NCBI GenBank assembly: GCA_030390025.1 | Contig: CM059432.1 | Location: 54,066,001-54,130,000 of the forward strand | From: Squalus acanthias | Lineage: Eukaryota | Reading direction: 5' to 3' | Length of the DNA: 64,000 nucleotides | Part shown: one piece after another, positions 30,433 to 61,380 of the stretch | Position numbering within the stretch: the stretch's first letter is position 1 | Layout of the letters: each line of letters opens with the position of its first letter | Notes under the pieces: generated by a model | Seen by the model: the letters and a program-made list of their open reading frames with translations, nothing else | The model's database searches: none | What the model was told of the DNA's origin: nothing | Program-made: the position numbers and the translations under genes

Positions 30433-30801
30433 TATTGTAAGACAAGGCCGGTCCCCTATGTGTTGAAAAGTCAGGTGGAGGAAGAGCTAGAGAAACTGAG
30501 AGAGAACGGAGTGCTAGTAAAAACTGACAAAAGTGAATGGGCTACCCCGACTGTGATAGTGCCCAAAGCAGACAAAACTATACGCTTGTGTGGTGACTAC
30601 AAAATTACTATCAACCAAGCAGTTGACGATGAGCAGTACCCATTACCTACATCGCAAGATTTGTATGCATCTCTCTCTGGGTCAAAGGTTTTCTCTAAGC
30701 TTGACCTGTTGCACGCTTATGCTCAGCAGAATGTTGACAAAGATAGTCAACAGTATCTCACTATCAACACACACAAAGGACTGTAAAGTCATAGAATCAT
30801 A

Positions 30802-31686: not shown

Positions 31687-34600
31687 ATAGAGTCATAACG
31701 GCACAGAAGGAGGCCATTCAGCCCATCGAGTCCGTGCCAGCTCTCTGCAGAGCAATCCAGTTGGGCCCTAAACTTAACAGTAGAACTCATACACCAAGCT
31801 GCCGTATGGTGTAAAGTCCTCCCCCAAAATCTTCCAGGCTACGATGGATAAGATTTTGCAAGGAATTCAAAATTGCTTATGCAATCAAGACGCTGTGTTG
31901 ATCGCAACAAGCAGTGAGGAAGAAAATCTAGAAATATTAGATTTAGTGCTTCAAAGGTTGAATTCCCACAATGTCAAATTGAAAAGGAGCAAATGTGCTT
32001 TTGTGCAGCCCAAGGTTGTGTACCTTGGTCTGAAAGTTGATGCAAAGGGCTTACAACTAGTTAAGGAAAAGGTTGATGCTGTCATCAATGCTCCAAAGCC
32101 ACAGAACATGTCTGAGTTAAAATCTTTCCTTGGAATGGTCCAGTACTATGCACGTTTCTTAGCTGAGTTAGCGACCATGTTAGCTCCATTGCAGGAGCAC
32201 CTCAAGAAGGATGTCCAGTGGAAGTGGACAAATGCGCAACAGGAAGCTTACGACGCTTGTAAGAGAAGTCATGGTCATAGTCATAGAGTTACACAGCACA
32301 GAAAGAGGCCCTTCGGCCCATCGTGTCTGCGCCGGCCATCAAGCCCTGTCTATTCTAATCCCATTTTCCAGCACTTGGTCCGTAGCCTTGTATGCTATGG
32401 CATTTCAAGTGCTCATCTCAATGCTTCATGAATGTTGTGAGGGTTCCTGCCTCTACCACCCTTTCAGGCAGTGAGTTCCAGATTCCAACCACCCTCTGGG
32501 TGAAAAAGTTTTTCCTCAAATCCCCTCTAAACCTCCTGCCTCTTACCTTGAAACTATGCCCCCTGGTTATTGACCCCGTCTACTAAGGGGAAAAGTTCCT
32601 TTCTATCTACCCTATCTATGCCCCTCATAATTTTGTACACCTCAATCAGATCCCCCCTCAGCCTTCTCTGCTCTAAGGAAAACAACCCCAGCCTGTCCAG
32701 TCTCTCTTCATAGCTGAAGCGCTCCAGCCCAGATAACATCCTGGTGAATCTCATCTGCACCCTCTCCAATGCAATCACATCCCTCCTATAGTGTGGCGAC
32801 CAGAGCTGCACACAGTATTCCAGCTGTGGCCTAACTAGCGTTTTGTACAGCTCCATCATAACCTCCCTGCTCTGATATTCTATGCCTCGGCTGATGAAGG
32901 CAAGTATCCCATATGGCATTTTAACCACCTTATCTACCTGTCCTGCTGCCTTCAGGGATCTATGTACATGCACACCAAGGTCTCTCTGATCCTCTGTCCT
33001 TCCCAGGGTCCTACCATTCATTGTGTATTCCCTTGCCTTGTTAGTCCTCCCAAAATGCATCACCTCACACTTTTCAGGGTTAAATTCCATTTGCCACTGT
33101 TCTGCCCATCTAACCAACCCGTCTATATCGTCCTGTAGCCTGAGGCTTCCCTCCTCGCTATTTACCACTCCACCAATTTTTGTGTCATCTGCGAACTTAC
33201 TGATCATACCTCCTACATTCATATCACAGGGTTCCAGTCACAAAAACAACCTTCGACCATCACCCTCTGCCTCCTGCCACTAAGCCAATTTTGGATCCAA
33301 TGTGCCAAATTGCCCTGGATCCCATAGGCTCTTACCTTCTTGACCAGTCTCCCATGCGGGACTTTGTCAAAAGCCTTACTGAAGTCCATGTAGACTACAT
33401 CAACTGCACTACCCTCATCCACACACCTAGTCACCCCCTCGAAAAATTCAATCAAATTGGTTAGACATGATCTCCCCCTGACAAAGCCATGCTGACGATT
33501 CTTGATTAATCCTTGCCTCTCCAAGTGGAGACTAATTCTGTCCCTCAGAATTGTTTCCAATAATTTCCTTACCACTGATGTTAGGCTCACTGGCCTGTAA
33601 TTCCCTGGTTTATCCCTACTACCCTTCTTGAATAATGGTACTACGTTAACTGTTCTCCAGTCCTCTGGCACCTCCCCTGTGGCCAGAGAGGTTCTGAAAA
33701 TTTGTGTCAGAGCCCCTGCAATCTCTTCCCTTGCCTCACACAGCAGCCTGGGATACATCTCGTCAGGGCCTGTGGATTTTTCCACTTTTAAGCCCGCTAA
33801 AACCGCTAGTACCTCCTCCCTCTCAATACTAATTAGTTCAAGTATATCACAATCCCGCTGCCTGATTTCTATGCCTCCATCGTCCTTCTCCATAGTGAAC
33901 ACAGATGCAAAATATTCATTTAAAACCTCACCTACATCTTCCGGCTCTACACACAGATTGCCACTTTGGTCCCTAATGGGCCCTACTCTTTCCCTAGTTA
34001 TCCTCTTGCCCTTAATATACTTATAAAACACCTTGGGATTTTCCTTTATTTTGCCTGCCAATGTTTTTTCATGCCCCCTCTTCGCTCTCCTAATTTTTTT
34101 TTTAAGTACCCCCCTGCACTTTCTATACTCCTCTAGGGCTTCCACTGTTTTTAGTCCTTTGTATCTGCCAAAAGCCTCCCTTTTTTTCCTAATCCATTCT
34201 TGTATATCCCTTGACATCCAGGTTCCCTGGGTTTGTTGGTCCCACCCTTGACCTTTACGGGAACATGTTGGCATTGTACTCTCTCTATTTCCTTTCTGAA
34301 AGACTCCCACTGCTCTGATGTGGATTTTCCTACAAGTAGTTGATCCCAGTCCACTTTGGCCAGATCCTGCCTCATCATATTAAAATTGGCCTTCCCCCAA
34401 TTTAGAACCTTTATTTCCGGTCCATCTTTGTCCTTTTCCATGACTACCTTAAATCTCACCCAATGATGGTCACTGTCACCAAAATGCTCTCCTACTGACA
34501 CTTCTACCACTTGCCCGGCTACATTCCCTAGAATTAGGTCCAGTACCGCCCCCTCTCTTGTAGGACTTTCTACATGCTGGCTCAAAAAGCTCTCCTGGAT

Positions 34601-36722
34601 GCACTTTAAGAATTCTGCACCCTCTAAGCCTTTCACACTCTGATTATCCCAGTTAATATTGGGGAAGTTGAAATCCCCTACTATTATTACCCTATTATTT
34701 CTACACTTCTCTGAGATTTGCCTACATATGTGTTCCTCTATCTCCCCCTGACTGTTTGGGGGCCTATAATACACTCCCAGCAAAGTGCTTGCCCCCTTTT
34801 TGTTTTTAAGTTCTACCCATATGGCCTCACTAGAGGAACCTACTAAGATATCATCCTTCCTTACAGCAGTAATTGACTCCTTGATTAATATTGCGACACC
34901 CCCACTCTTTTACACCCCCCTCTGTCTCACCCGAAGATTCTATACCCCGGAATATTGAGCTGCCAGTCCTGCCCCTCCCTCAACCATGCCTCTGTGATGG
35001 CAACAATATCATACTCCCATGTGCTCATCAACACCTTCAATTCATCTGCCTTACTCGCAAGACTCCTTGCATTAAAATAAATGCCATCCAGCCTTGCCAT
35101 ACTCCCTTGTGCCATTACATATTTGCTCTGCCTTCCAGGCTGACTTGTTTTTTTCCTCTATATTTAGCTGTGCATCACCCTCTACTATAGCTCCACTCCG
35201 TATCCCATCCCCCTGCCAAGTTAGTTTAAACCCCCCCCCAACAGTACTAGCAAACCTCCCCGCAAGGATGCTGGTCCCGTTCCGGTTCAGGTGCAACCCG
35301 TCCGACTTGTACAGGTCCCACCTTCCCCAGAAGCAGACCCAGTGATCCAGGAAACTAAAGCCCTCCCTCCTGCACCAACTCTTTAGCTGCACATTCATCT
35401 GCTCTATCCTTCTATTCCTATACTCACTAGTACGCGGCACCGGGAGTAATCCAGAGATTACAACCTTTGAGGTCCTGCTTTTTAATCTGCTACCTAGCTC
35501 CCTAAATTCTTGTTGCAGGACCTCATCCCTCTTTCTACCCATGTCATTGGTACCAATGTGAACCATGACCTCTGACTGTTCACCCTCCCCCTTCAGAATG
35601 CCCTGCAGCTGTTCAGTGACATCCTTGACCCTGGCACCAGGGAGGCAACATACCATCCTGGAGTCACGTCTGTGGCCACAGAATCATCTATCTGTTCCCC
35701 TTACGATGGAATCCCCTATCACTATTGCTCTCCCACTCTTTTTCCTCCCCTCTTGTGCAGCTGAGCCACTCGTAGTGCCACGGACTTGGCTCTTGCTGCA
35801 TTCCCCTGCAAAATCATCTCCCCCATCAGTATCCAAAACAGAAAATCTGTTGGAGAGGGACCCATGGGACTCCTGCACTACCTTCTTAGTTCTTTTACTC
35901 TGTCTGGTGGTCATCCATTTCCTGTCTGCCTGTGCACTCTTTACCTGCGGTGTGACCACCTCATTAAACGTGCTATCCACGAAGATCTCAGCTTCGCGGA
36001 TGCTCCACAGTGACTCCAGCCGCAGCTCCAGCTCCGAAACACGGATTTCGAGTAGCTGCAGCTGGAGACACTTCCTGCACATGTATTCGCCCTGGACACC
36101 TAAAGTGTCCCTGACTTCCCACATAGCACTGGAGGAGCACTCCACACTGCCGAGCTGCCCTGCCATGTCCTACCCTTAATTTACTCCCTTTACTTCCTTT
36201 AAATTAAAGAATATTTAATACACTAGGGACCTTACTTCCCTTTAAACACTACTTACTCTAAACTAGAGACCTTACTTTTACTTTAACGACTGGACTGTAG
36301 AAATACTCACCAGGTCCTACTTACCAATCAGCTCCTTCCCTGGTTGTGACGTCACTTTAGCGGTTTCACAGTTGTTGTTGTTTGACTGCTCCCGCTCTAG
36401 GACTCTTTCCTACAAGGTGAAAAGTTAGGAAAAACAAAGGCGAATCAAGAGAGCTCCTCTTTCCACTCCTCACCTAACTCCCTGACTCCCCCAACTCACA
36501 GCACTCTGTTTAAACCGTACTCAGTGCAAAATCACTCTGCAAAGCCTGTTTTGATAGGCCCTGAAACAAAGGAGCTTGCTGTGTTCTGCTACAGGATAAC
36601 CAGTTTAATCTAGTTTCCCTAATTAACTGCCTTCAGCTGCTCTGAATTGTAGGCCTTGTACTCTTTTTGAGTCAACATAAAACGACTGTAAATTAACAAA
36701 ACTTCAAATGAAACTTTTCTCA

Positions 36723-39700
36723 TTAAACTAAAATAACATTGTCCGGGGAGACGATGCACTCCAGTCCCTGCGGCACCCACCGGTCTCGGAAGGCTTCAAG
36801 TGTGCCGGCGGACACCGCGTGCTCCATCTCCAGGGCCACCCAGGCGCGAACATAGCCGCGGAAGAGAGGCAGGCAATTGGGCCGAACGACCCCCTCGACC
36901 GCCCGCTGCCTGGACCTGTTAATGGCCACTTTGGCCAGGCCCAGGAGCAGTCCTACGAGGAGGTCCTCCGACCTGCCCTCTCCCCTCCACACCGGGTGAC
37001 CATAGATCAGGAGCGTGGGACTGAAGTGCAACCAAAAAGTGAGGAGCAGCCCCTTCAAATATTCAAAGAGGGGCTGCAACCTCTCACATTGTACGTACAC
37101 GTGGAACACGGAGTCCTCGAGGCTGCAAAAAAGACAGGCGGCCTGGGAGTCTGTGAACCTACTTAAAAACTGATTGCATGGGACTGCTCCGTGCAACACC
37201 CTCCAGGCCAAGTCCGCAATAGAAAAGGGGAGGACTCCCGCGTAGAGAGCCCTCCATTGGGGACCTTCGCCTCTGCCGGACGGCAAAATGGCACGCCAAG
37301 GCGTGTCTGGACGGCAGGCGAAGATGACAAAGTGGAAAGTGTGCAGGAACAGCCCATACAGGGAACCCCTCCGTGCAGAACTGAAGGGCACGGAGGGCAT
37401 TTCCCCGAGACGGCTCAAGTTGTGAGGCGCCGGTTCCCGAGAGGGGTTTCGGGGCCGTGCGCCGATGAGGAATTCCGTCCGAACGGAGGTCAGTTCGGAC
37501 GGGATCGCCCCACGTGCTTGAGCCTCCTCGATACACCTAGTGGAGTCCGGGCCCAGTGCCACTTTCAGCGACTCGATGGCTTTGGTCGCGCGCCAGACGT
37601 TGACCCAGGAGAGGCGCCGCGCCAACTCCTCCGGCGCCATCCAGCCCGCTCCTCCACCATCGAACAGGTCCCCGACTCTGGTCACCGTGCCAGGCACAGC
37701 CCTGCCCTCCGCCAGCCACCCGATCCGTCGGACGTGGAGGTGCGGATTCCTGAGCAGCGGCTCCCGAAGGAGAGCCGCCACTCCTGACGGGGGAGAACTC
37801 CGCCTGGAGGTGACCTGGTTCCAGACCCATAGCAGTTCCTGGTAGAAGACAGGCAGCTGCCACAGGTAGGCTCGCGTGCGGCCCAATTCCACAAACAGGA
37901 GCTGCGTGTCATAGTTGAGGCCGTGCATCTGGCGGAAGAAATACATCGCCAGCGCACACCATCTGGGAGGATTCTTGACGTAAAGGTACCTCTGCAGCGT
38001 CTGAAGACGGAAAGTCGCCGCCTGGATGCGAAGGCACACCAGCGCCTGACCGCCCTCCCTAAGCGGGAGACACAGAACCGCGGCAGAGACCCAGTGCTTC
38101 CTTTTGTCCCAGAAGAAGTCGATGAGCATCTTCTGTATCTTGGCGACAAACGCAGGGGGCGGGATCAAAGTGACCAACTGGTACCACAACATGGCGGCCA
38201 CCAGCTGGTTTATGACCAGCGCTCGACCCCTGTAGGACAACACTCAGAGCAACCCCGTCCAGCGTCCTAGGCGAGCGGTGACTTTGGCCTCTAGCTCTTG
38301 CCAGTTCGCCGGCCAGGTGTCCTCGGCCAGGCCGAGGTAGACTCCCAAGTAGAGGAGGTGCGTTGTGCTCCAGGCGAAGGGCCTGAACTCCTCCGGCAGG
38401 GAGTCCACCCGCCACTGGCCCACCAGGAGTCCAGAACATTTCTCCCAGTTGATCCTGGCGGAGGATGCGTCCGAGTAAATCTGCTGGCATTCTCGCATCC
38501 TCCGCAAGTCGACGGGATCCGTGACCATAAGGAGCACGTCATCGGCATAAGCCGAGAGGACGACTTCCACGCCCGGCCCTTGCAGAGCCAGTCCCGTCAA
38601 CCTCTTCCGCAAGAGGCGCAGGAAAGGCTCCACGCAAACGGCGTATAACTGACCGGACATGGGGCATCCCTGACGCACCCCCCTCCCGAAGCGAAGGGGC
38701 GCCGTCAAAGACCCATTGACTTTTATCAGACACTCAGCGGCGGCGTACAGAAGTCGGATCCGGGCGACGAAATGCGTCCCGAACCCGAATGCGCGCAGAG
38801 TTCCGAAAAGATACTCGTGATCCACCCTGTCGAACGCCTTCTCCTGATCCAGGGAAAGGAAGGCGACCGACAGACCAGCCCTCTGGGATAGGGTGGACCA
38901 GGTCCTGGACCAGATGGATGTTGTCGTGGATTGTCCGGCCCGGGACCGTGTAGGACTGGTCGGGGTGGATCATGTGGGCCAGCACGGTGCTGAGGCGGGC
39001 AGACATGGCCCTGGCGAAAATTTTATAGTCCGTGCTGAGGAGGGAGACCGGGCGCCAGTTTTTTAAAAGGCGGAGATCACCCCTCTTGGGCAGCAGGACG
39101 ATGACCACCCTGCGCCAAGAGAGGGGCATCTCCCCCCGGTCGCCAGACTTTCCCCCAGGACCCGCGCGTAGTCGCCCCCCAAGACGTCCCAGAACGCCCT
39201 GTGGAACTCCACGGTCAGCCCGTCCAGCCCCGAGGACTTTCCCCTCGAGAGCTGGCCGAGGACGCCGGTCAGCTCCGCCAAGCTTAGCGGAGCGTCCAAT
39301 TCTTCGGCGCCCTCCGGGCCGACCTTCGGCAGGTCCTCCCACAAAACTCTGCGCGCATCCTCGCTGGACGGATCCGAAGAGAACAGAGCCCCGTAATAGG
39401 CCCGGGCCTCCGCGCTGATTGTTCCGGATCCGAGACCAGAGATCCGTCGTCGGCCAGCAGCCCGAAGAGCTGCTTACGGACCCCTTGTCTTTTTTCCAGC
39501 GAGTAGAAGAAGGGGGAGCCGCGGTCCAGTTCCCGGAGGAACTGGATCCGCGACCTCACGTACGCGCCTCGGGACCCGACCAGTTGCAGGTCCTTCAGCG
39601 CGCCCTTCTTCTCTTCGTACACCTTCCGCAGGGCCGGGTCTTCGACGACTTTACTGAGACGGGACTCCAGGTCGAGCACCTCCCTCTCCAACCGCCCGAC

Positions 39701-40644
39701 CCGGGCCTCCCGCCTCTTGGTCGACCCCCTCGCGTACTCTTGACAGAAGAGACGGACGTGAGCCTTGCCCACGTCCCACCATAGCCTCAAGGAGGGGAAG
39801 CCCCCCTGCTTCCTTCTCCAGTCGGCCCAGAACCGACGAAACGAATCCCGGAACCGCTCGTCCTCCAGCAGCAGGTTGTTAAAATGCCAGTACGCGGACC
39901 CCCCCCGGCGCCCGCAACGGAGCGAGCTCCGCCCACACCAGGTGGTGGTCCGTGCACGGCACCGGCCGCATGGAAGCCACCAGAACACAGGAGATGTACG
40001 CCCGGGAAATATAAAGGCGGTCGATTCTGGACCTTCCTCCTCAGAACCCCACCCAAGTGAAGGCGCTGGAGTCGGGATGGAGATTTCGCCAGACATCCAC
40101 CAAGTCGAGGGACCCGACCAGGTCCCTCAACTTCACCGTCGCTGCCAGGCTTCGCGGGGGACCGGAACGGTCCCTCGCCTCGAGGGTACAATTGAAATCC
40201 CCCCCGAGGATGACGCACTCGCCGACGTCGATGGTGCCCAGAAGAGCGGACACTTCTTCGAAGAAGTGCACTTGCTGCGCACTGGCCTGGGGGGCATACA
40301 TGTTCACTAAATGGAGCGGCACGCCCCCCCAGGCGAACAGTGACCTGGAGCAAGCCGCCCGGCACATGCTCCTTGACCCCCAAGATCTCCGGCTGAAAAT
40401 GCGGGGCCAGCAAGATAGCCACCCCGCTGGAAATGTTGGAGAGGTGACTCATGTTGACCCCTCCTCGCCACTCCAGGAGCCACATGGCCTGGTCTCCCAG
40501 AACGGTGTGAGTTTCCTGCAGGAAGCACACCGCATGCCTCCCTTCCCGAAGGACCGAGAAGTTATTAAATCTACGGCGTGCCTCTCTGCTGCCGTTGATG
40601 TTGAGGCTGGCTATGGTTATCTTCATGACAAGAGCATAGTGCAA
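36723..40644 (-). pseudogene. Tx1 ORF2: APE endonuclease - reverse transcriptase - CCHC (several frameshifts)
   Basis: KITIASLNING, FLQETH, GGDFN, WRPVSLLSTDYKI, GRGVRQGCPMSG, YADD and CLFCSLEDSVFHVYVQC motifs spread over several ORF pieces. Confidence 0.92.
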
Positions 40645-40657
40645 CCTCTACCTAACC

Positions 40658-42706
40658 CTAACGGGAGGAGGGAGCGCGGCCGCTAGTCGACCGCCACTCC
40701 CTTCTCAGCCCAGCGAGGAACTTCCGGATCTGACGCCGCTCGGCCGGGTCCACACCCCCGTCCGCGCCCATGGTTTTGACGGCGGCGCGGACGGAGCAAA
40801 CGAGCAGCGCCAGATCCGACCATTTATCAATGGCCAGCCGGATTATATCTTGGCGACCCTGGCCCATGGCCACAAAGTCCCGGAGTTCCACAACAGGGAT
40901 GAGGGGGGACCCGGAGGGAGGCACGAGGGTATCCGCCGCCTCGCTGGCGACGGAGTCCATGTCATCCTCAGTGTCTCCCGCCGGGTCCCCGTCCTCCTCC
41001 GGGGGGTCGCCATCAGCTGGCACTACCTCTGCCCCGATCCCACCCCCAGGATCGACGGCAGAGGAGTCCTCCCTGGGCTCCTCCAGAGGCGCCGGGTCAG
41101 GAAGCGGCGGCGGCTCAGGGGCCCCCCTCCGCCCCCGGCACCGGGGTGCATGGGGAAACCGGGGAGTACATTAATGCCAGTTCCCCCAACACCCCCGGCG
41201 CCAGCGTCGGAGTCGGAGTCAGGGGCCTTCCCCTTCACCGCCACCATCCTCTGACCCAGCGGACCAGGTCGAGCAGCACCTGGGAATAGTCTTGACCGTA
41301 TACGGCGGGCTCAGCCTCATCGGCCTCGCCCGCCCCGGGCCCCAGGACGCCCGACCTGGCGAGAAACAATGGTTCAATATATAGATCCTCCGCGGGTAGT
41401 TCCGCGACCCCCCCCACGAGCAGGGTCTCTTCCCCATCCCCAGGAGGCACAGGCTGGACAGATTCATCTGTCGTACCCTCCCGGGGGACAGGCGACTCCT
41501 GCCGAGTGTTGGTGACGGTGTCGGTGGTGGGGGGGGGTGGCGCAGCACACGCGGCGAGCGACGACTCCCCTTGCGAGGGGGGACCCTGTTCCTTGCGGTC
41601 CTCCTCCTCCTCTAGGGCGTTGCGCCTCCTTTTCAATGTGAAGGGACACGGAGGTTGGGAGACCTCCATGTGTACCGAGGCCTCCACCTCCGCTCCCTCC
41701 TGTCGAACAGTTTGCTCGGGTCTCTCGTGCAGGGGCCCAGGCCCGGCCGCAGGTCTTGATTTTGCCGCCTTGGCGGTTGCGGCCGCAGGCCCGGGCGCGA
41801 GGCCCCCCGCACTCTCGAGCACCGCCGCATCCTGCGCAAGGTACGGGGGCGTAAGCCTGGGTAGCTCATCCTGTACGTCAAGGGGACCCGCCTGAAGGTA
41901 TTTACTTTTCCTCCGCGCCTTCCTTCCGATCGGACGCTCCCCCTTCCCTCCGTCGGAGGCCACGACGGCGTTGACCTCCGGCGTCGACCGCGCATCGGGT
42001 GTCGCGGACGCGCAGACAGAAACGGGGGAGGAGCGGCGGCGGCGCCAGCCTTGGCCGCCTCAGATGTTTTGGCGGCCTTGGAGGCGGGGCAGTTCTTTCT
42101 TATGTGCCCCACCTCCTTGCAGGCGTGGCACCGCACACCGTCCGACGTCCAGAAGACGCAGTAGGCGGTCCCCTCGTGTTGGACGACAAACGCGCCTTCT
42201 GTGTCCTCCTCCCGCAGCAGCTGGATAAACAGCTGGCGCCGGAAGGAGAAGACGTGCCGGAGGCTGGCCTCCCTGCAGCCGAGCGGGATCGGATTAATCC
42301 CCGACCTCACCTCCCCCAGTTGACGTAGGTGAGGGAGGAGGAGCTCAACTGGAACAAAGGGCGGGACGTTTGAAAGGACAATTCGCTGCGCGGTGGCCTC
42401 AAGCAGATCCACCGGCAGGAAGGTCCCGCCCACGGTGAGCCCCTTCGTGACAGCCAGGGACACCGCCCGCTCCGACCCCAGGAAGAACACAGCCTTGCCG
42501 TACATTTTAGAGGCTGCTACGATGGCTGAGGGGCCGACTACCCCAGCCATGGCTTTAACGCAAGCCTCTATGGTCATGTTGGGGTGAGTGTAGCTCTTCA
42601 CCCCTAGCTTTTTTGTCAGTAACCTGAAAGGCGACGGGGCAGCACAAGCAGCGGGACTGGCTGTGGCTGCCACACCCACGTACGACCTTGCTGGCCCCGT
42701 CGCCAT
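40658..42706 (-). pseudogene. Tx1 ORF1 (nucleic-acid-binding, zinc knuckle), frameshifted
   Basis: IVAASKMYGKAVFFL, IVLSNVPPF, VFSFRRQ and CHACKEVGHIRKNC motifs. Confidence 0.9.
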
Positions 42707-44248: not shown

Positions 44249-46754
44249 AGAGTCTTTTGGAGAGTTCCCTTTTTAACACCCACCTCTCGATGTTGTTTTC
44301 TTCTCAATGGCTCTCCCTCCTTCCAAGCAGATGTTGGTATTGGTTTTCTTCTCCCCTCTCTCCCTCTCCTGTAATGGAGACCAGTTGGGGAGGCAATGAT
44401 GTAATGGCGTCCTTCTGTTGTTGTTGTTGTTTCTTTGGTCTCCTCTCCTCTCTCTCCTCTCTCTCCTCTGGCACCTCAGCAGTAATAGTAGTTGTGGCAA
44501 CAGGCGTGGTGGAGGTGGAAAGGGTCTCCACTCTGCCCTTCGTGGCTCTGTCTTCTTCTCCTAGGCACAGAGAGAGACCTTTCCTCCCCTCTCCTCTCCT
44601 CTTCTCAACACTCTGTTCAAACTGCACTCAGTCCCGTTCACACAGCACCAAGCTGAGCTGAGCTGAGCTGAGAATCTCGCAGCCTGTGTCTCTCCAACAA
44701 AGGCGAAGCAAGGGAGCTCCTCCTTCCACTCCTCACCTGACTCCCTGACTCACCCAACTCGCATCACTCTGTTTAAACCGCACTCAGTCTCTTTAGTGAT
44801 GCTTTACTTGTGCACTACAACACAGAGCATAAGCTTAAGTTAGCATATGATGCTTCCAGGTACGGTGTGATAGCTGTCATAAGCCACGTAATGGATGATG
44901 GCCAAGAGAAACCAATCGCGTTCGCATCGCGAACCCTCACAAAGAGCGAAACAACCTATGCGCAAGTTGAAAAGGAAGCACTCGTCATAGTGTTTGGAAT
45001 CAAGAAATTCCAACAGTTCCTGATCGGCAGAAATTTACCCTGATAACCGATCACAAACCGTTCCTAGCAATATTGGGGCCCAATTCTGCCATCCCTGCAA
45101 TGGCCGCATCAAGAATGCAACATTGGGCAGTGTTGTTGTCACAATATGACTACACGATTGAATATCGCACTTCAAAGCAAAATGCAATCGCAGATGCCTT
45201 GTCCAGGTTGCCACATGAAGACTCATGTGTTGGGAGTGAAGGTGAGATTTTCCCGCTAGGTGCAGTTGACAAAGACTTTCCCGTGAATGCAACTGAGATT
45301 GCAAATGAGACTCAAAAGGACTTAGTACTGAAAAGAGTGCATGAAAACACCTTGAATGGATGGACTGATCAGTGTCTGGACACAGAGTTGAAACCATTCC
45401 ATAACTGTCCTACTGAATTGTCTTGTAAGCAAGGTTGTATCAAGTGGGGAAACAGAGTGGTGGTACCTACTTCTTTGAGAGATAGAATTCTGGCCGAACT
45501 TCATACTGAACATCTAGGGATCATCCGTATGAAATCAATTGCAAGAAGCTTTGTTTACTGGCCTGGATTGGACAGTGATCATGAATCACTTGTCAGCAAA
45601 TGCAGCGTTTGCCAAAATTGCAGAAACAAACCACCCAAAACTCCACTACAACCCTGATCATGGCCAAGTAAACCTTTTCTGACAATACATGTAGACTTCT
45701 GTGAGAAAGCAAATGATTATTTCCTGGTACTTGTAGATAGTCACTCAAAGTGGATTGAAGTGAAACACATTGGTTCAAATACTACAACTCAATGTACCAT
45801 AGATGAGTTGAGGTCTATCTTCGCATGTCAAGGCTTACCTGAAAAGCTTATTTCTGACAATGGCCCTCAGTTCCATTCTGCTCTATTCCAAGAGTTTATG
45901 AAATGGAACGGTATCAAACACACTCTCGTTCCACCATATCATCCAGCTTCAAATGGAGAAGCCGAAAGGTCAGTAAGAATAGTAAAAGAAGTTCTCAAAA
46001 AGCAAGTTTTGCAGGGTTGTTCGGGACTCAACATGAAGCAACGTTTGGCAATTTTTTTGCTGAAGTACAGAACTAGTCCGCACACTACAACTGGATATAC
46101 CCCAGCAGAACTTTTGATGTAGAGGAAATTGAGAACATGATTGAGTCTTGTTGAACCAAATTTAGCCACAAGATTTGAACAGAAACAGTTGTGTCAGAAA
46201 ATCACAATGACAGCAATCAGAAAGTACGCAGTTTCAGACAAAACGAGTGTGTTTGTGTCCTCAGTCCCCCTGGTAAGTCGAGTTCACACAAGTGGGATAT
46301 AGGAACCATAGTAGAGGTTGGTGGAACCAAGAGATATTTGGTTGAAATTGGTGACAACATCTGAAGTGTTCATGAAGACCAAATGATCTCTGCTAGAGAT
46401 GAACCAAGACGTGATCTTGAACCACTTGATCATGAACACGTACATGAGTTTGACTCCATTCAGACTTCAGAAACTGAAGTACCAGGTTCAAAAAAATCTG
46501 AGATAGAAACAGGAGCATCTTTGAGTTCGGAACCAGATAAAACAGCCCGAAAATTAGTTCAACACCAAAACCTTTTTGTAAGGAGATCAGGAAGGGTCTG
46601 CAAACCTGTTATGAAACTGGATTTATAGTTCATTTAAAAGAAAAGAAGCCAGGAGTTTTTGTTTTGTGGTACATGTAATGCTGGGAAATGTGGAACCATA
46701 GTTTGTTGTATTTGAGAGAGAATACATACTTTTATTTAAGGGGAAAGCAGCGTA

Positions 46755-49570: not shown

Positions 49571-50739
49571 ATTAAACATTGCCTGTATGCTCTGTAAAAA
49601 AATAATTCACAATCAAAAAGGCACAAAAAAAAGAGAATCATGCATTTTTAGGGGGAAAAAAAGAAAAAAGACAAAACCAGCACCAAAACAGTTTGTAAAA
49701 CTGAATTAAAAAAAACCTAGCAAATCATTTGCCTCTGAAGAGGACCGTCTCTTCTGGAGCTTCACTCACATCCACTTAAGATGGACAGAGTGCACAGCAT
49801 CATCCCATCCTAAACAGAGGAGAAATCATGCTGTGCTTAATTTAAATCATTTTAATATTTGAATTAAGCTCTCATGTTTAGGTAGAGCGCAAACTGTTTG
49901 AATTTGGCAGGGATCTCATGAAAGGATTCCCTGCCAGATTTCCCAGTCTCTACTCGCCTGTTCCACTTTATTTCACAGTGAATTGGAAAAGCATGTGTTA
50001 TGGCAAAATCATGTGCAAATACTTTAGTCATTTGCTTCCCATTTGACCTTTAAAAGGTTAGCAATAGGTGTAACAACACTGGTCAAGGAGTCAATTTTCA
50101 AAGATTTGTGCTTTGCTGCTATATTTTGTTGAAGCCGTTGGTGTTAAGCATCTTTTAGCAGCACAACAGAATTTTTAAACACTTGTGCCATTTTCTATCA
50201 CCATCTACAGTATTGCAAATCGCATATATGCAAATTATATGTAATGTTTGTAAATGCTGTGTTCGTGACACACATCAGTGCAGATCCTCAAAAGCATAGA
50301 AAGCATAGCGTGAGTAATGGCAGAACCTAATAAACAGACAGTACCACTTGAAAGTGTGCATAACATTACAATTAGATAAATATTGATGAAGTAGATGCTG
50401 ATTAGCTGACCAGTCTTAATAATTAATAAAGGAAGCAGCAGTCGTATAATTTGCTGAGCATATCAATAATTAATGTTTATAGTAGGAGTAATTTGCAAAA
50501 TAGATGAACTAAGCAGAAACATTCTGGTGTGGAAGGGATGTTGAAATCGTATGGAAGTTTCTGCTAAAATGTTACATTTTGAAGTTAATTTTTTTTTAGA
50601 AGTGTGTTTCTTGGTTCTGAGTAAAGCTTCAAATTGCTATTGATTTCCATATGTGAACTTGATCAAATATATGCTTTCGTATATTGATCTTAAACTTTAA
50701 AACTAAGTTGTGTGGAACATTTAAAATAAACATAACATA

Positions 50740-51466
50740 TCATTGCCTCAGGTGGTCTTGCGGTCCACGCATTTTGTGATGGGACAGGTTTCAATCCATA
50801 ACTTTTCACACGGTGATTTCCCAGTCCTAGCTGGATCAGCACAGGCATTTCTGTTTTTTGCTACGCATTTGGACTAGCATTATTTGATAGATAATATAAC
50901 ACTGAAAAATAATGTGCAAATTAACCTGGGTTAGTATTGTAACAGTCTTGTAGTCACTTTCTGATACTGGTCTGCGTAAAGCAGGTACCACTGGAGTATT
51001 TCGTAGAAATTAATTTGAGAGATGGATGAGAACACCACGGAAGAGGTTGAGCTGCACAGTCCAGTCACATCATGACTGTTGAGCTATTCGTACTATTTAG
51101 GTTAGGTTCTTCCGCTCCTCTTCCGTATTTTTTCTTTATCCTCCGTCCTCCGCCTGACTTGTCATGAACATGTCCTTCTCTTTGAAATATCGATGATCCA
51201 TTTCTTCCGTGTGTAGACGTATTCCTTGTAGCTTAAAGTTGTTCCCTTTTTCATCTGTTTGTCTGTTTCTTCTTGTGTCATATGCCGCAACCAATGGTTT
51301 GTCCCTATTCTGTTTTATCTCTAAAGTTTTACACATGCATTAATACAAACGTTACCCGTAACTCTCTTTTGGCCCGTGGGGGTACTCTAGCCTGAGTCCT
51401 CCCAGGGCTACATATTATGTTTACACAAACAAGCAAACTACACATGATATCGCGTAACACGTTCAT
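50740..51466 (-). pseudogene. Putative env N-terminal part, frameshifted and truncated
   Basis: 51466-51329 reads MNVLRDIMCSLLVCVNIICSPGRTQARVPPRAKR (signal-peptide-like plus basic RAKR). Downstream frames carry N-glycosylation sequons (NST, NSS) and a Cys-rich piece KCVAKNRNACADPARTGKSPCEKLWIETCPITKC. Acceptor-like cccccacag|G at 51544. Confidence 0.55.
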
Positions 51467-51570
51467 CTTATCACTTTATGTTAACAATGTCCCAAAGGCT
51501 ATATCGCCAACCTAACCACTTTGTTGCTTGTAAATTCTATTTTCCTGTGGGGGTGAATGGAATATTGTTA

Positions 51571-51798
51571 TTAAGCTGGTTCCTCGATCATAATCATTTG
51601 GATTCCCTCCTCCTGCTCGACCGGTTGGAGTTGACGGGACTGTTCCCATACATATTTCAGGATATATCCCAAGGTATATCCTATCAAGATAATACATATT
51701 ATCCAAACCAGTGTTTGTGTCAGCGTCCATTCCCATTCGTCATATTGTCTAGCATATTCTTCACTTTCTACAAAAGGTACTTGTTCTGGTGTAGCCAT
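51571..51798 (-). CDS. Putative retroviral accessory single-pass membrane protein (75 aa)
   Basis: ATG 2 nt after the pol stop; acidic N-terminus, hydrophobic TLVWIICIILIGYTLGYILKYVW, acidic C-terminus. Confidence 0.5.
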   Translation of the reverse strand: MATPEQVPFVESEEYARQYDEWEWTLTQTLVWIICIILIGYTLGYILKYVWEQSRQLQPVEQEEGIQMIMIEEPA

Positions 51799-51800
51799 TC

Positions 51801-53260
51801 TTAAATTGGTGAAGGGTCATAGGCTTTCAGCTGTGTCCAGTGCTTCCATCGTCCCATGCCCTTTATATTAATGCAAGCACACGTATCCCCACTAATTAAA
51901 ATCTGATATGGTCCCGACCATTTTTTTGGGGCGAACCCGGGTTTTCCTGGTAGATTCTTAACCATTACCTTGGTCCCCGCTGGAGCGATATATGGAAATG
52001 CAGTCAATTCCAAATTTTTATCTCTTTCCTGTCTTTCCCTAGTTTGCTGTTTCATTTCTTTTAATTGGTTACTCATTTCCAGGACATATCTGCGGAGTTT
52101 ATCCTTTAGGGGACCCACATCTTCTCCTCCAGTCATTATACCATAGGGGAGCTGCATTGCCCTCCCCGTCATTAGCTCATATGGTGATAGGCCCGTGGTT
52201 CAATTTGGGGTGGCTCTTAGTTTCATTAATACTGTGGGTAGCACATCCACCCACCGTTGCTGTTTTTCCCAATGCTTTGGCTACCGCTGTTTTTAAGGTG
52301 CGATTCATTCTTTCTACCATTCCAGAACTTTGAGGATGGTATGGGATGTGGAATTTCTGTTTTATTGACCCCCTTCCTGTATGGGCGCTTCCATGATGTA
52401 GTTCTAAAAGTATCTGTCTGATGCACACGGGGGCTATCACCTTTCCATTCTTTCGCCATATTGCCTCTTCATCTGGTCTACCCCCTACTCGGTACCATTC
52501 CTGTCTTTCGTCTTCTGGGGCGTCTGCATGCAATTTACTGATATCTATTTCCTCTATCTGTGCACTAGCTACGTTCCCTTCAACCATTTCTTGCTCAAGA
52601 GCTCGCTGTGCTGCTAGATCAACAGCCTGGTTCACTTTTTTGCTCCTGATTCTGTATCTTCTGGTGCACTTTAATTTTTATTACTGCAGCTTGTGCTGGG
52701 GCTTTTGTGGCTTCCAAGAGGGCCTCTATTCGCTGCTGGTGTTTTATGTGATCCCCTCCGGTTGTCACAAACCCCCTTCTCCCCCAAGCTGTCATATAAT
52801 CGTGTACTGTCTTTCCCCTTGCTAATTCTAGCGCCTTTGTTAACGCTACTATCTCGGCTACTTGTGCCGACAAGCCTCCGTCTAAACTTCCCGACATTTC
52901 TGTTTCCAACTGATCATTTACTACTGCCAATCCTGTCCGGGGAGATCCCTTTACATATTTCCTTGACCCGTCTACGTACTGTGTCATCTGAGCTTCCTCC
53001 AGCGGTTCGTCCTGCATGAGGGTTTCGTCTAGTTCCCCCTCTGTCTCTGAGCACTGATGGGGGCTTCCCTTACTCAGGATGCCTTCCGCGGGGTTTTCCC
53101 CTGTATCCCGAATTACCTTAACTGTCTGGTCTATCGGCAGTAGGACTGCTTCCCATCGAGCTCACCGCATATTGGAAACTGACCGTAGTTTCCCGGTATT
53201 TAACATCTCTACCAGTGTATGCCGAGTGTGTAAGACGATATCCCCTGTCATCACAGTTGG
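51801..53260 (-). pseudogene. ERV pol module B: tether C-terminus, RNase H, integrase (internal deletions)
   Basis: TVMTGDIVLHTRH...VSNMR*ARWEAVLL...NPAEG, RNase H missing the YTDS segment, partial HHCC fused to the QKFHIPYHPQSSG integrase C-half. Confidence 0.9.
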
Positions 53261-54020
53261 TTTGCTACTCTAACTCTGCATCTCTGTCCTACATTATTCT
53301 TAGCGCATATTATACAACGGTGACAATACTTCGACACCTCTCGACCCATCTTTGGCCACCACCTGTACTGTGTCAGTAGGTGCAACATGTTACTTCTGCC
53401 GATATGTGTTACAACATGGTACAGTCCCATCAGTTGTTGTCTACAACATTCCGGTGCCACCACCTGGTTTCGTGGGCCCCATCTCCAAATTCTATCTCGT
53501 AACTGTGCGCCAGCTTGTTGCCATCTCTCCTTTTCCTCTTTACTAGTATTTTCTTGTACCTCCACTATATTCACTTCCTGTACCCCACTGGCTGTCATGA
53601 CCATATTTATCTCGTGTTTAAACGCGGCTTCTGGTTTAAGTTCCTCCGCGGCTAGTTTTGCGGCCAAATCTGCATATCGATTTCCTATGGGAGCCTGATC
53701 CTGGGGCTCCTATGAGTCCATGTCTATCTTCGTGTGGGCCTTTATTTTAATTACCGCGGTTTCTAAAGGTGCCTGTGTCGCCTTAACTAACCTTTCTATT
53801 AGCTTTCCATGTTTTACTACCTTTCCAGTGGAGGTCATATAACTCCTTCTGTTAATATTCCGGATGCTGGGTTTATTCCAGTATGTTTTTGTATTAATAC
53901 TGATCCATCTCTTGGTCAGAAGATTGTTTCCCACTTTGCTTTTCGGCTATCTGATATAGTTCTGTTTAAGAGCCCAAGGGGTTAATTTATCAAATCTTAA
54001 TTTTCCTTCCATCACTGTGG
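53251..54020 (-). pseudogene. ERV pol module A: second, divergent tether / RNase H C-terminus / integrase zinc finger
   Basis: PTVMEGKL...ISDSRKAKWETIF...GINPASGIL, RRSYMTSTGKVVKH...AVIKIKAH, GNRYADLAAKLAA, HVVTHIG...WWPKM...CIIC. Confidence 0.85.
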
Positions 54021-55699
54021 GGAAATACTAACTTAAAATTAAGACACTTAAATTTCATAATGTCCAATATCTTTAAATTTCGTTCAGCCATACTAAAATT
54101 GTTGCTTACAACTGGAGAAAAATTAGTTTTTCACATTTAAACAAATTGCTTCGGAGAATTCCACCATAGCAACCGCGACTCCAAGGTTAAATCTTAGACT
54201 GAAACTTAATCTTTTGTTGAACAAACTTTTTGTTTTTCTTCTCAGTTTTTACACACCAGCTTAACTTAAATTGTAGTTTGAAGTTTTGTTTCAATTCTGG
54301 GTGCACAATCTTATTCAATGTGGTCTACACAAATTTACACCAACCAGAATTTCACCGTGGCCACAATGAAAGTCTGGTTTCAATAGGTTAATTCACCTCT
54401 AACTCCAATTCAATCCAGATCAGTTTTTTCAAACTAACCAGTATCACTTGGAAAAGAAAGAAACCACATTAACAAAGAAACAATTACTCATGCCTTGTAA
54501 ACATTCAAATTCATTTTCTTCCAGGCACATTGGCAACTATGACTTCAAGGCTGAAGCTTATCTTTTGTAAAACAATTAACAAACTTAAAACAACACACAC
54601 TTGTCTGTCATTCAAGACAGGTCTTCAAAGGGTTAAACAGCTTTTAGCTCTCTGTACAAAAGAGTGGGTGGAGCTAAAACAAAACTGACTTCGACTTTTT
54701 TTTTTAAAAAACAGACTTTCAGACAAAAGACATACTGTAACTTCTTAAACATTCACAGTCAGGAAAACTTTGAGCCTTTAACACACTCTTTCACCCAAAC
54801 TGAGATCCCAGCATTTTTTAATTTTTCAAGGTTCCTGTCACTTAGCAAATCTTGAGTTTTATTTGTCTCAGCACAAATATTAATATAGCTTCCATGTCGA
54901 TTTGTTTCCTGACTCATACCCTTTCTTAATCATATAATAATAGCTCTTGTTCTAATTCAAGAATTCTTTCATTTTTACTTGCAAGTTTAGTGTGGAGTCA
55001 TTGCACCTTGTTTGTTAATGCGACTAATTGGTTTACTAGTATTACCCTCGCCTTTTTCGTCTTTTTCTGTTTTTGACCCTCTACCACTCTCTCTTACCTT
55101 CGGATTCTGGAGCGGGTCCCACCCCTCCTTCATCATCTTATCAACTAAACCCGTCTGGTCGTCTATATAGAACCTAGTAAGGGCACCATTTGTCCCTATT
55201 CTATTTCTTTCCCCGACGTCAAATATAGTCCAACTTACAGTCTTATCAAATGCTGAGTTCCTCTAATCGGGTTAGTTCTTGATACCTTAAAAGACTTTAA
55301 GCGGTTACGTAGTCACATTACACACACACATGTATTAATTGACTTCATGATCCCAGGGTACTTTGGTTCTCTACGCCTACTTGATCCTGGCCATTACGTG
55401 GGGCCCAATCGCCCTCTTAATTCCGGCTCAGGCTAGGTGTGTGAGACAGGTGCCCTCCTTGTCCGTGTCGATCAGTCAATTACTTGTACCTTCGCGACAT
55501 TTATCGTTACACAGTGTTCCCTTAGTAGACGCAATCCACACTCACACAACTGTGTTCTCATACCTCTAACAGACTTTCACTTGATTCGTGATGCTATGGC
55601 ACTGCCTCTCCGCCGTCCCAAGCGACTCAATTTCTGGACGGTCAAAATTTGACTTCTCGTCCGGCTTCACTGGTACGGGCGGTCTTTCAATCCCAGAGC

Positions 55700-55717
55700 A
55701 TCCTGCCGACTACGCCA
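55700..55717 (-). promoter_or_regulatory. Primer-binding site complementary to tRNA-Ser
   Basis: Minus strand TGGCGTAGTCGGCAGGAT, 2 nt after the LTR-terminal CA; plus strand ATCCTGCCGACTACGCCA matches the 3' 18 nt of vertebrate tRNA-Ser(AGA-type) as I recall it. Confidence 0.92.
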
Positions 55718-55719
55718 AT

Positions 55720-56385
55720 TGTTGGTGAAAAATTAATTCACTCGAGTCTGTCGTAAAGCAAAAGATCACAGTTTATTATTCAGAGCGCTCCGGGAGAATT
55801 CAGAGCGCTCTGGGAGAAGGCTCATAGCCTGCGGTCTCATGACCCGCTTCTCAACTTAACAATGGGAGCCATGCTTCTTTATACACTTCCAAAAGCCAGA
55901 AAATACAAACATCAGCACAGTTAGGGTTAGGGTTACGTCATGAGTGACCCTTAGGTTGTCTAAAAACAACTTGATCAGAATTTACACTGTTAGCAAAACT
56001 TATTCTTTTACTACTGCTTTTATCAACCATCTGTGCTGCATTGGTTTCATTCTTACACCTATTTGAGGTTACTTTACAGAAAAACAATGATTCACATTTT
56101 TGTTCTGCAGTGTCTGCATTATTTATACTGCAGCCTAAGCAAGTTGGTCTTTTATCTAATTATACCCCTGTCTCCATGCCTTCGGGAGATACTTTGACCT
56201 TTACTATAGTCCTTTAAGCAGTTCAACTAATCTTAAACAATACAAATGATTTGCCCTTACGTTATTACAATTACATTTTTTAACTCTTACAGGCAGTATT
56301 GTGACAGGTGGTTCATGTAACAAGTAAACCGCAACACACAATTTTAAGTTAAATTGCGAAGTTGGAATGTCTCCTTCACCAAGCA
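55720..56385 (-). repeat. ERV 5' LTR (666 bp)
   Basis: Inverted termini TGCTTGGTGAA...TTCACCAACA on minus; TATAAAG at 55883-55877; AATAAA at 55777-55772; adjacent to the PBS. Confidence 0.88.
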
Positions 56386-57547
56386 TACATCACCTTTCTA
56401 GGTAAACCTTACATAATTACCTTAACATTCTAAATATTTTCCAGAAAATAGGTATTTGGAAAAAATTAAGGACATCTTACTCTGCAAGAATATTTTCTGA
56501 ACATGATCTAATCTTGCTAAGCAGGCAATTTCAGGCTCACTGCTCTCTATGGTATCGGCTGTCCCATGCCCATCTCTCTACTGGTCCCACTGCTCCAGGC
56601 CCATTACTCAATACCAGTGCTGGCTTGTCCAGATCCGTTGCTCTCCTCAGTGCTGACTGCTCTGGGTGTGGTGTTAGGTATGTGTAAAGTTAATAAAAGG
56701 ACAGTGACATGAGGTGTATAGTATCACATAACTAGTGTAATACTAATACCAATTTGTTTTTATGATAGCAGATTATCAGGAATGCATTAAAGGGTACATT
56801 TTATGAATCTTCATGCTTATCAGAATACTGGCAAGAGGTCAGAAGATCTAACAGGATTTGTTGTCCATTATTATATTTAACAACATAGATATACTGATTT
56901 GATACATTGATTTTCATCTAGCAGGGCTATACAAATGATTACTGACCAGCCTGCACCAGTTGAATTTGAAATCAATACAATTGGGCTGCATAATAGCAAG
57001 TTTTATTATAAATCTCACTTAACATTTTTTCCTGGTTCTGCACTTATCTTCTCAAGTGGGACATTTGTATCATTTGATAAAGTCAGTAAGGAAGATAAGA
57101 TTGTAATATTTACTTTTTCATTATATACACATTAATTTTGCATTAAATAAAATAGTAGCAATAAAATAATATCGAATTAATTACTTCCTTCCTACAGAGG
57201 TCAGCACTGGAATACTTGTAGAGAATTATGATTTGCCATACTTTACAGCCGAAGAATTTGTTTTCATGCAGATAAAAGCAGAATTGCAGCAGTGGTTTCC
57301 TGTGGTGATGGTACAGATACTACACTAACACACTGAAAGCTAATTATTTGCTTTTCTCTGAGATATCCCTGTGGCTCCTTATTGTGAGTCATCGTCAGAT
57401 TATAATTTGGTTCATGGTGAGAAACATATGGATACAGTAAGTGTCAAGTTTGGGGTCTGACAGCAGGTGCAAAATGTAGTTTGCATGAACCTCACTAAAC
57501 ACATAACCAAGGTCACCTATCCATCATTCCAACAAGCCATGTAAGAA

Positions 57548-59052: not shown

Positions 59053-59917
59053 TATGACTCTATGACTAGGCAACCCACGTCTGCTGGTCCAGTCAGCTGA
59101 GGAAAAATCTCTTTACAAATGTGATGGGGATGAGGAATGAAGTCTAAACAGATACTAAATAACTCTATCTCCACTTCCAGATTCCAACTTCACAAGCTGA
59201 GTGTAGTAAAAAATGGAAGGAGACAATGGAACATGACCCTGGAAGGGATCAAATGCATAACCAATGTAGCACTGAAGACTGATTGTTAAGTGAGTTCTTG
59301 GCTGCAGGTACAGTTCTCCTGGGTCAGTACATGAAAGGATTGATCAATGGCCTCCTGTAGGCAGCGAGAAGATGCATCTCAGTTATATGGTATTGAGCTA
59401 TAAATCATTGCTCCTTATTTGTTCTAGTTGAATAAAAAATAATCCTGAAGATCTGGACCTTCTTTCATCACCTTTGTGTCCAAAAGGCTGACTGCAGATC
59501 ATATTTCTGTCCTGAGGAACTAACATGTATACCAATAACACCTGTAAGTCAACTGCAGAGCTGGTGTAAATGGGTTGTCTATTTCAATAATCTCTGCAGG
59601 AAGATAGAAACAATGGCCGGAATCTTTACCTTGGAGTCGGGTGGGTGCATGCGAGCTGCATAGTGGGTCAGGATCCCAAAGATGTAAACAGTGCATTCTG
59701 CAGTGCGACTTTCACTTAATGGCCCCAATTAAACCAGTCATGCGCATTTCCTGGCCCAATTAAGTGGAGCGGGTCTGAAGACGTCATTGATGATTCATTT
59801 CCAGCGCGGATATTTAAAGCAGCCTTGCACACATCTCATTTGAAGGTCGATGTAGGAGTGAATAAGTTGGTATCCAGAGGTCTGAGTAGCGTCATAAAAC
59901 TGATACAAGTGTGGGTA

Positions 59918-61380
59918 ATGAAGACACAAAGGCAGGGGGCCATTGATGGTCTGGTGCAGGTAGTAAGAGCATGCAGGGAGGTCCTCTTCCCTGGCGATAG
60001 ACGCAAAAGACCACCCAAAGACACAAAAAGGGCATGGTTGGAGATTGCAAAGGAGGTCAATAGCAGGGATGTGATCAGGAGGACGTGGATCCAGTGCTGC
60101 AAAAGATTCAATGATCTCATGAGGTCAGGAAAGGTGAGTGCAATGCCACACTCACCTTCATCCTGATGTGCCTGTCACCACAACCCGATCACTCTGCCTT
60201 CCCAAGCCTACTCCTGCGCATCATTCCTCACACCAACCCACCTTGCAGGTCGATCCATCCCTCTCTGTCTATGTACATACTCACATCCTCATCTGACTAA
60301 CCACCACTGACACTCACCCTCATCCTAATCATAGCAAGTAACACCACAGAAGGAGGTCATTTGGCAATGTCATGCCACTCCCTCATAGTCACCCTCTACA
60401 GATGTAGCCCATCCATTCCTCACACTCATTCCATCACTCTCACTCAAAGTTCTCTTCTTTCCCTCCTTGCAGGAGAAGAGAGCCCACAACAATAGGGAGA
60501 GGCAAAGAACTGGAGGTGGCCCTCCAGTCTTCACGCCATTGACTCCAGCAGAGGAGGAGGCCCTAGAGATCTCTGGAGTTGCAGAGCTGCTGATGATGGG
60601 AGACGGAGAGAGGGGGACATCCCAGCAACCTGGTGATAGAATCACATCTCATATAGCCACATGGCATACAACAGTCACCCATATGCTGACTCATGTCAGC
60701 AGCCAGTGTAATGTCATCTTGTGCATAATGGTAACGTTACCCATTCTTATTATAACACTTCTAATTCATCTCTTTACTCTCCCACAGGTCCATCATCTGC
60801 AAATGCACTCCCCCCCCCACTCCACTATCCAGCTGGAGGAGGAAGATGACTCCTCAGAGGAATCTCCAGCCTCTGAGGGTGCACCATCACCAGACCCAAG
60901 TGCAGCCAGCACCAGCGCAGATACGCACACCTCGGTGGGTCCTGTGCGAGATAGAATAGTGTTGTCACCTGGTGTCTCTCAAATCACAAGTGAGCAAGAG
61001 CAGATGGTGTTGACAGGGGCAGCAGTGGAGACTCCTTGCCGGAAGGCACAGGACGCTCCAAGCTCTGCTGAGCTGCATGCAGATGCTGAGCCTCAGGGCC
61101 ATCGAGAATGAGGGTGATCTCGAAGGGGCAGCCACAATTGCATGAGGCTCTGGCAGCTTTTTCAGCCGTGTTGTATGCAACTGTACAGAGAATGGAGGAG
61201 TCCATCTCCAACATCAGGACCACCATCTCGCAGGTGATGGCGACGATGTGCTGTTCCATGGAAAGGATGGCCACCTGCATGGAGCAGCAAATGTGCCAGT
61301 CACATGAGAACATGCTTGCTGTGGACAACAGATGGCAGATGCTTATATGACCTCATCTCAAGGAGAGATATAAATGCCAG
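59918..61380 (+). pseudogene. Harbinger Myb/SANT-like gene, 3 exons
   Basis: REVLFPGDRRKRPPKDTKRAWLEIAKEVNS...WIQCCKRFNDL; AAG|GTGAGT at 60133, ttgcag|GAG at 60473, CTG|GTGATA at 60632, ccacag|G at 60788. Confidence 0.82.

Follow-up and report, generated by a model that had tools for sequence, protein, structure and literature searches.

The 64,000 nt stretch of DNA analysed here (the window) contains, at positions 51032..56385, one copy of a defective, many-copy family of endogenous retroviruses (ERVs), probably from sharks. The whole element lies on the minus strand. It has cis signals, namely a long terminal repeat (LTR) and a primer binding site (PBS) for tRNA-Ser, and does not encode a protease, a reverse transcriptase (RT), a whole integrase or env. 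It carries two diverged pol fragments, A followed by B, and not one. We consider it likely that the family is a non-autonomous, env-less and recombinant one, belonging to a shark-associated class III lineage in the grade related to snakehead retrovirus (SnRV), and that it was amplified in trans. An earlier, sequence-only reading of 50740..56385 had seen one retrovirus here; it had overlooked the second pol fragment, the piece of gag and the fact that the element exists in many copies.

Fragment A (whole span 53963-53254) opens with a 40-codon tether piece (53844..53963, minus strand, found by tblastn) that is 50 % identical to residues 532-571 of P0076, the nearest RT-bearing relative. After an internal deletion come the C-terminal third of RNase H and a complete HHCC zinc finger of the integrase (53254..53853, minus strand, found by Pfam and tblastn), and the fragment stops short of the integrase catalytic core. 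The zinc finger is recognized by Pfam as Integrase_H2C2 (E 8e-13), with the HHCC motif intact, and the fragment as a whole is 37 % identical to P0076. Its frame has a single stop in 200 codons where 12 would be expected, a Met near the start, and an end just past the junction with B.

Fragment B consists of a tether and RNase H (52637..53266, minus strand, found by Pfam RNase_H and tblastn), with one stop, a 36-nt gap at 52807 and a terminal frameshift, and an integrase (51804..52638, minus strand, found by Pfam, tblastn and profile search), with one frameshift and one stop. A deletion at about 52366 has removed the latter half of the integrase zinc finger together with the two catalytic Asp regions; the Glu motif and the C-terminal domain are retained. 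No Pfam match to a dUTPase was found behind it. Fragment B is 64 % identical to P0076 and has 1 stop in 203 codons. The claims that this region holds a retrovirus-type RNase H and an integrase were sound, the latter as remnants: the RNase H scores above the Pfam cut-off, and the RT-RNase H of murine leukaemia virus (MLV) and of the related xenotropic virus XMRV are its sole matches in PDB. The combination of tether and second RNase H also bears out the assignment to retroviruses rather than Gypsy elements. Neither tblastn with 79, later 255, stored proteins nor a profile search found a protease or RT, and the window contains no second copy of the LTR; the copy is non-autonomous, as had been stated.

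Fragments A and B are 40 % identical over 129 columns. Identity at the three codon positions is 0.52/0.65/0.39 over 127 codons, from which it follows that A and B diverged as working genes. Their tblastn ranges overlap by about 10 bases at 53266-53257, as a template switch at a short identity would leave.

Among the matches listed, the stretch was found in 20 runs from at least seven organisms, with the best run covering 0.51 of its words. None of these runs is on record as RNA, although X11 may be. Depth and junctions were analysed in 4 of these 20 runs (X1, X6, X7 and X11), mapped on 49700-57480, and individual contigs were drawn from a displayed subset comprising 32 of approximately 3,930 pieces, 15 of 22 joints and 24 of 602 loose ends. 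Depth, which is a sum over contigs and not a copy number, was 980-35,600 across the element against 13.5-21 in the flanks for X1, 19-2,180 against 0-1.7 for X6, and 34-875 against 0-1.8 for X7. Since element and flank differ 10- to 1000-fold, the element must be present in many copies. The deep zone is bounded by the LTR edge on one side and by approximately 51032-51067 on the other. Below it, depth over 50740-50999 fell to 13.5 in X1, which is the flank value, to about 2 in X6 and to 0 in X7 and X11. The 3′ end had been placed at 50740, which is too far, and the single-copy DNA at 50740..51031, with its flank-level depth, is most likely host flank outside the family. One X1 contig runs from the flank to 51067 with 4 differences, and X1 therefore contains the same truncated insertion and may come from the source species.

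The joints between parts recur in other copies. X11 contig 12 (53054-53413) spans the A/B junction, across which X7 contigs 28 and 29 also share a 30-nt overlap. A further X11 contig, number 14, reads through the deletion inside A. The integrase-core deletion in B is bridged by X6 contig 19, but other contigs continue into undeleted integrase, which makes this deletion the mark of a sub-lineage. The displayed X6 and X11 contigs lack the 36-nt gap that this copy has in the RNase H of B. At the 3′ end, an X7 contig (depth 39) joins 51032 to the LTR at 56282 in proviral orientation, with approximately 180 unmatched letters between, and because of this joint some copies appear to end in a 3′ LTR without env there. 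Many copies sharing common deletions, as looked for in a non-autonomous ERV, were found on the displayed contigs of the four runs. The deep X6 contigs differ from this copy at 1/269, 1/213, 2/191 and 9/426 bases (approximately 0.4-2 %), and the single-copy flank in X6 differs at 5/201. As deep contigs and flank are similarly diverged, the amplification would be roughly as old as the split between the organisms. Relatives were found in none of 8 candidate IMG/VR stretches searched with P0001 and none of 30 metagenome candidates searched with P0076, and a search for the LTR-end/primer pattern and one for the tRNA-end pattern in viral contigs gave 0 matches each.

The nearest named proteins are all from sharks, namely Mustelus asterias, Pristiophorus japonicus and Heterodontus francisci. 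The lineage was examined in three trees. The RT-tether tree has 54 rows (43 hand-picked stored proteins and 11 reference loci) and is midpoint-rooted; a second RT tree uses 37 of 38 rows (P0066 was dropped for coverage) with 6 foamy viruses as outgroup; and the RNase H-integrase tree uses 45 of 46 rows (P0083 was dropped). The RT trees were built from rows other than class II references, named ERV-L/ERV-S Pol and named fish foamy-like ERVs. Reference retroviruses were taken from IMG/VR, and all but L013 carry names that we presume from their lengths and gene layouts. L013 is taken to be SnRV, as its length matches the 10,688 nt given in PMC12193657.

In the RT-tether tree, a shark clade (support 100/98) falls on the L013 side, away from all gamma- and epsilon-type rows (100/99). 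When the tree is rooted on foamy viruses, the shark clade (96/94) groups with proteins from fish (95/91), class I stands apart (99/97), and the six foamy rows form a clade of their own (100/100), apart from the shark relatives. A union of the shark relatives with class I is rejected (approximately unbiased (AU) test, p 0.0007). These trees support a placement of the RT-bearing relatives (Mustelus, Heterodontus), as judged from their sequences, outside class I and foamy viruses in a class III/SnRV-related grade. An epsilon-type parent, considered because of a 37 % identity to L014, is ruled out by the RT trees. Grouping with SnRV itself has support of 90/89 in the midpoint-rooted tree, is an open fork in the foamy-rooted tree, and is accompanied by a long branch in the RNase H-integrase tree. 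The phylogeny that the sequence-only reading had proposed as a check thus separates the relatives from class I and foamy viruses, and leaves the link to SnRV as an open fork under the foamy root. In the RNase H-integrase tree, B falls inside the shark clade (100/99), with A as the sister of that clade (98/95).

The RT motif of the shark relatives is YVDD. The Heterodontus francisci protein P0009 contains a Gag with a zf-CCHC domain (E 2e-7), where a foamy-type Gag has no zinc knuckle, and this Gag is 28 % identical to that of L013 (E 1e-9). P0009 itself is annotated as a Gag-RT fusion, with no protease match and a degenerate RT active-site motif; either a further defective family within this lineage or a faulty gene model could account for it. 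In Pristiophorus japonicus, the first 140 residues of P0003, annotated as 'histidine decarboxylase', are the tether and RNase H of the same ERV lineage, and the entry is probably a mis-joined annotation.

Several of these shark Pol proteins (Mustelus asterias XP_078069418.1, which represents the P0074 cluster; Pristiophorus P0002, P0003 and P0078; and P0009) are 55-68 % identical to fragment B. They are automatic annotations and not described families. The Mustelus cluster encodes a protease, an RT and a single tether-RNase H-integrase module, in contrast to the tandem in the element.

The closest described system is lineage I of CmiERV from the elephant shark (Han 2015, PMC4422223), a cartilaginous-fish ERV that has been grouped with SnRV. 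CmiERV on scaffold 2 has the identical 18-nt primer site just past a TG..CA LTR (supplement of PMC4422223), and for this reason neither the tRNA-Ser primer nor the lineage is new. In the LPQG region of RT, compared by eye, CmiERV agrees with P0001 at 35 of 46 residues, whereas L013 reaches 32 and no row outside the shark clade exceeds 34. The CmiERV Gag has, by eye, a DWG motif like that of P0009. However, its LTR and RNase H look unlike those of the element (also by eye), and it has a whole gag-pol-env with a class I-type env and no second pol fragment. CmiERV lineage I appears to be a related lineage and not the same family. SnRV-related ERVs of cartilaginous fish have also been treated more broadly. 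Clade Huo, which unites SnRV relatives with class III ERVs, spans all major vertebrate groups (Xu 2018, PMC6001957), and ERVs in six cartilaginous fish, with a named SnRV-related Pol group, have been reported (Chen 2021, bioRxiv 2021.11.23.469661). The suggestion of an undescribed lineage is not supported in view of these publications and of the CmiERV primer site.

In the RT tree, SnRV and the shark relatives are together separated from class I (100/99). SnRV carries small accessory ORFs (open reading frames; PMC12193657) and the element has one candidate. However, the SnRV primer site differs from that of the element by 6 of 18 positions at best, and SnRV is autonomous with a long env, unlike the element. 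Priming by tRNA-Ser(AGA/TGA) in class III-grade elements is known from XtERV-S, HERV-S and ERV-L (PMC8278194, PMC5210030), in line with the sequence-only reading. In the same sources XtERV-S has YIDD, a dUTPase behind the integrase and a Gag without a zinc knuckle, whereas the shark relatives have YVDD and CCHC, and B has no dUTPase. The class III-type grade and the tRNA-Ser primer of the sequence-only reading are supported; the other ERV-S/ERV-L marks that were tested fail, and among these marks the putative link to ERV-S is the primer. Lokiretroviruses also have a tether and second RNase H (PMC7947760).

Defective mosaics of this kind have been described in koalas, where recKoRV (PMC6112702) is a recombinant of two retroelements with disrupted ORFs and many copies, as in the element. 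It differs in being gammaretroviral and recent, with known parents, whereas both donors of the element belong to one class III lineage, the pol region is doubled and a parent was not found. Complementation in trans is a recognized route for ERVs (PMC10435555). The element belongs to a known kind, namely defective mosaic ERVs moved in trans, and the tandem of two diverged pol fragments is its odd feature. No published account of this family or of any double-pol ERV was found, in a search whose scope did not extend to Repbase, Dfam, subscription journals or cartilaginous-fish ERV supplements.

The 5′ LTR (55720..56385, minus strand) was found by sequence scan, and depth drops to flank level outside it. 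It is 666 bp long, with TG..CA ends in an imperfect terminal inverted repeat, TATAAA at 55883 and 56127, AATAAA at 55777, and a 20-bp tandem duplication at 55778-55818. The PBS (55700..55717, minus strand) starts 2 nt past the LTR. Its 18 nt are fully complementary to the 3′-terminal 18 nt of tRNA-Ser AGA and TGA, whose sequences are those tabulated in PMC10359600, and match once in the window against 0 in 100 shuffles. The sequence-only reading was right about this LTR and its signals, about the perfect tRNA-Ser site, and about an extra ORF, which has 75 codons and begins at the pol end. ARAGORN found no tRNA in the window and Rfam had no match in 50400-57500. The leader (55263..55699, minus strand) presumably holds the packaging signal, to judge by its position, and its folding is no stronger than that of shuffles (z -1.4). 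Behind it lies an N-terminal gag fragment of 91 codons (54990..55262, minus strand) with 0 stops (P 0.0025), matching the N-terminus of Heterodontus P0009 (30 % over 50 aa, pairwise E 6e-7). A motif scan, matching the bare pattern, found a splice-donor-like motif inside the fragment at 55100.

Between gag and fragment A is an AT-rich non-coding module of unexplained origin (53970..54900, minus strand), approximately 930 bp without an open frame and with 20-26 stops per frame in 310 codons. The part at 54100-54880 is approximately 5-10 times deeper than the pol parts in all four runs examined, and its many loose ends and length variants would fit a module shared by a larger set of elements. An acceptor-like splice motif (again a bare pattern match) is found at 54112. 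The module has no significant internal repeats and its folding is unremarkable (z -1.0). A decayed gag-pro-RT was considered and dropped: a lone weak tblastn match to a protease end (E 0.001-0.004) was obtained among 255 queries, and the protease profile score of -4.3 lies under the shuffled median of -3.2.

The 75-codon ORF (51571..51798, minus strand) starts directly behind the pol stop and is a candidate accessory gene. It has 0 stops (P 0.006), an acidic N-terminus and one predicted transmembrane segment (residues 29-47, hydropathy 2.27). It has one homologue, P0256, which is 74 % identical and ends at the same place, and it matches none of the ORFs of L013. A protein of the influenza M2 or geminivirus movement type was suggested by look-alikes in the Atlas at 0.87 only, which is a lead and not evidence, and was set aside. 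The 3′ remainder of the internal region (51032..51570, minus strand) is many-copy by depth and by the X7 contig joint, and it shows no protein that can be recognized (0 Pfam families).

An origin can be proposed from these features. The RNAs of two related retroviruses would have been co-packaged, and RT, by switching template, would have fused A up to its zinc-finger boundary with B from the tether onward, further deletions being added. The resulting defective RNA would have retained the LTRs, the primer site and the packaging signal, and could have been copied in trans by the Gag-Pol of a related helper, using host tRNA-Ser as primer, and inserted at many sites. This copy would later have lost its polypurine tract and 3′ LTR by local deletion, becoming a dead end. 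The open frames of A and B fit capture from working genes shortly before amplification.

Several points weigh against this reading. The shared layout is pieced together from short contigs of the displayed subset and no second whole copy was read, and the integrase-core deletion is not present in all copies. The link to a 3′ LTR is one contig in one run, with the approximately 180 unmatched letters between its two sides. The lineage is placed through relatives at 58-68 % identity and not through an RT of the element itself. No close parent of fragment A was found among 1.84 billion representatives (best match 38 %), no helper virus was found, and a search for a target-site duplication gave 0 matches, the 3′ end being gone in this copy. 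Finally, A and B as sisters are not rejected (AU p 0.07), and an old internal duplication is possible.

This last point also bears on an unlikely alternative in which fragment A is a second expressed gene for an RNase H end and integrase zinc finger, arising by old duplication or capture and maintained by selection; its spliced product might, for instance, bind the helper integrase or RNA. The nearly open frame of A, its intact HHCC, the Met near its start and the stop just past the junction would all be expected of such a gene, the donor-like motif at 55100 and the acceptor-like motif at 54112 could serve its splicing, and the databases hold no close viral parent for A. However, this copy is just 0.4-2 % from the deep X6 contigs, so that recently captured frames would stay open without selection, and the frames of B, the gag fragment and the 75-codon ORF are open to the same degree. 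A lacks the catalytic residues of both its domains, and the splice motifs are bare patterns. A distinctly unlikely extension is that the family keeps under selection both a spliced second RNase-H-end/integrase-finger ORF and a viroporin-type membrane protein. If true, the element would be defective yet equipped with accessory functions of its own through which it uses or modulates a helper, and would preserve as a fossil a complex class III retrovirus of sharks that has not been sampled.

It is very unlikely that the element is instead what remains of one complex retroviral provirus, comprising an accessory ORF and the beginning of env (50740-51030), after its other parts were lost by decay following insertion. 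In favour of this, the conserved 75-codon ORF is genuine, accessory ORFs also occur in SnRV and fish foamy-like ERVs (PMC12193657, PMC5210030), one minus-strand frame crossing 51030 has a hydrophobic stretch followed by cysteines, and single-copy depth by itself fits either host DNA or a unique viral remnant. However, the frames running from 51339 or 51281 to 50740 match no Pfam family and have a best PDB match of E 0.23, and the env-like frames have no credible match among 1070 ORFs of the reference viral loci. Their 7-8 stops, against 11-13 expected, are not below chance (P 0.09-0.11, uncorrected for the choice of frame). With no homologue, no deficit of stops and single-copy DNA below approximately 51030, the env-like start seen in the sequence-only reading is not borne out. 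The same holds for a complex layout that includes env, as none was found and the single candidate accessory ORF is what is left of that layout. Deletions and junctions that recur in other copies and organisms, and another copy that passes from 51032 to the LTR, also speak against a single provirus, which leaves two pol fragments unexplained. Loss of env is common in ERVs. It is highly improbable that the mosaic formed at the DNA level, by insertion of one provirus into or beside another, and was multiplied by segmental duplication or gene conversion, as the much deeper AT-rich module with its many loose ends suggests parts with separate histories but the amplification stops at the LTR edge, both flanks are single-copy, and there is neither an inner LTR nor a further primer site to indicate a nested insertion.

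Outside the element, 56525-56679 and 57198-57310 on the plus strand, and perhaps 50752-50787, are single-copy and combine splice signals with open frames whose phases match. The first two are probably host gene exons, on the basis of these sequence features, and the provirus would therefore lie antisense in an intron, approximately 140 bp from an acceptor; a search for the gene itself yielded no identification. A further exon at 49882 is doubtful, as it overlaps a 66-bp repeat found three times (47471, 49120 and 49908; 94-97 % identical) near fragments of long interspersed nuclear elements (LINEs). A GC-rich non-LTR retrotransposon with ORF1-, endonuclease- and RT-like frames, which we take to be Tx1/L1-like, occupies 36700-42700 on the minus strand. 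Gypsy-like RT and RNase H/integrase pieces at 29800-32300 and 44500-46300 (plus strand) are possibly one element split by later insertions. The ORF at 59720-60166 (plus strand) encodes a Myb/SANT-like DNA-binding protein (Pfam E 1.4e-7), presumably of the Harbinger transposon type, and 2100-2750 is a pyrimidine-rich tandem array with a period of approximately 25-29 bp.

The surprise of the finding is moderate, because the general process of defective mosaic ERVs moved in trans is well known. However, shark ERVs are thinly described, and the family suggests that two class III retroviruses whose Pols were just 40 % identical were co-packaged and recombined in a shark ancestor, and that the product reached many copies in several species. 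Fragment A records a Pol lineage that is otherwise unsampled, and the conserved small membrane ORF hints at a complex parent virus. The shared insertions could serve as phylogenetic markers.

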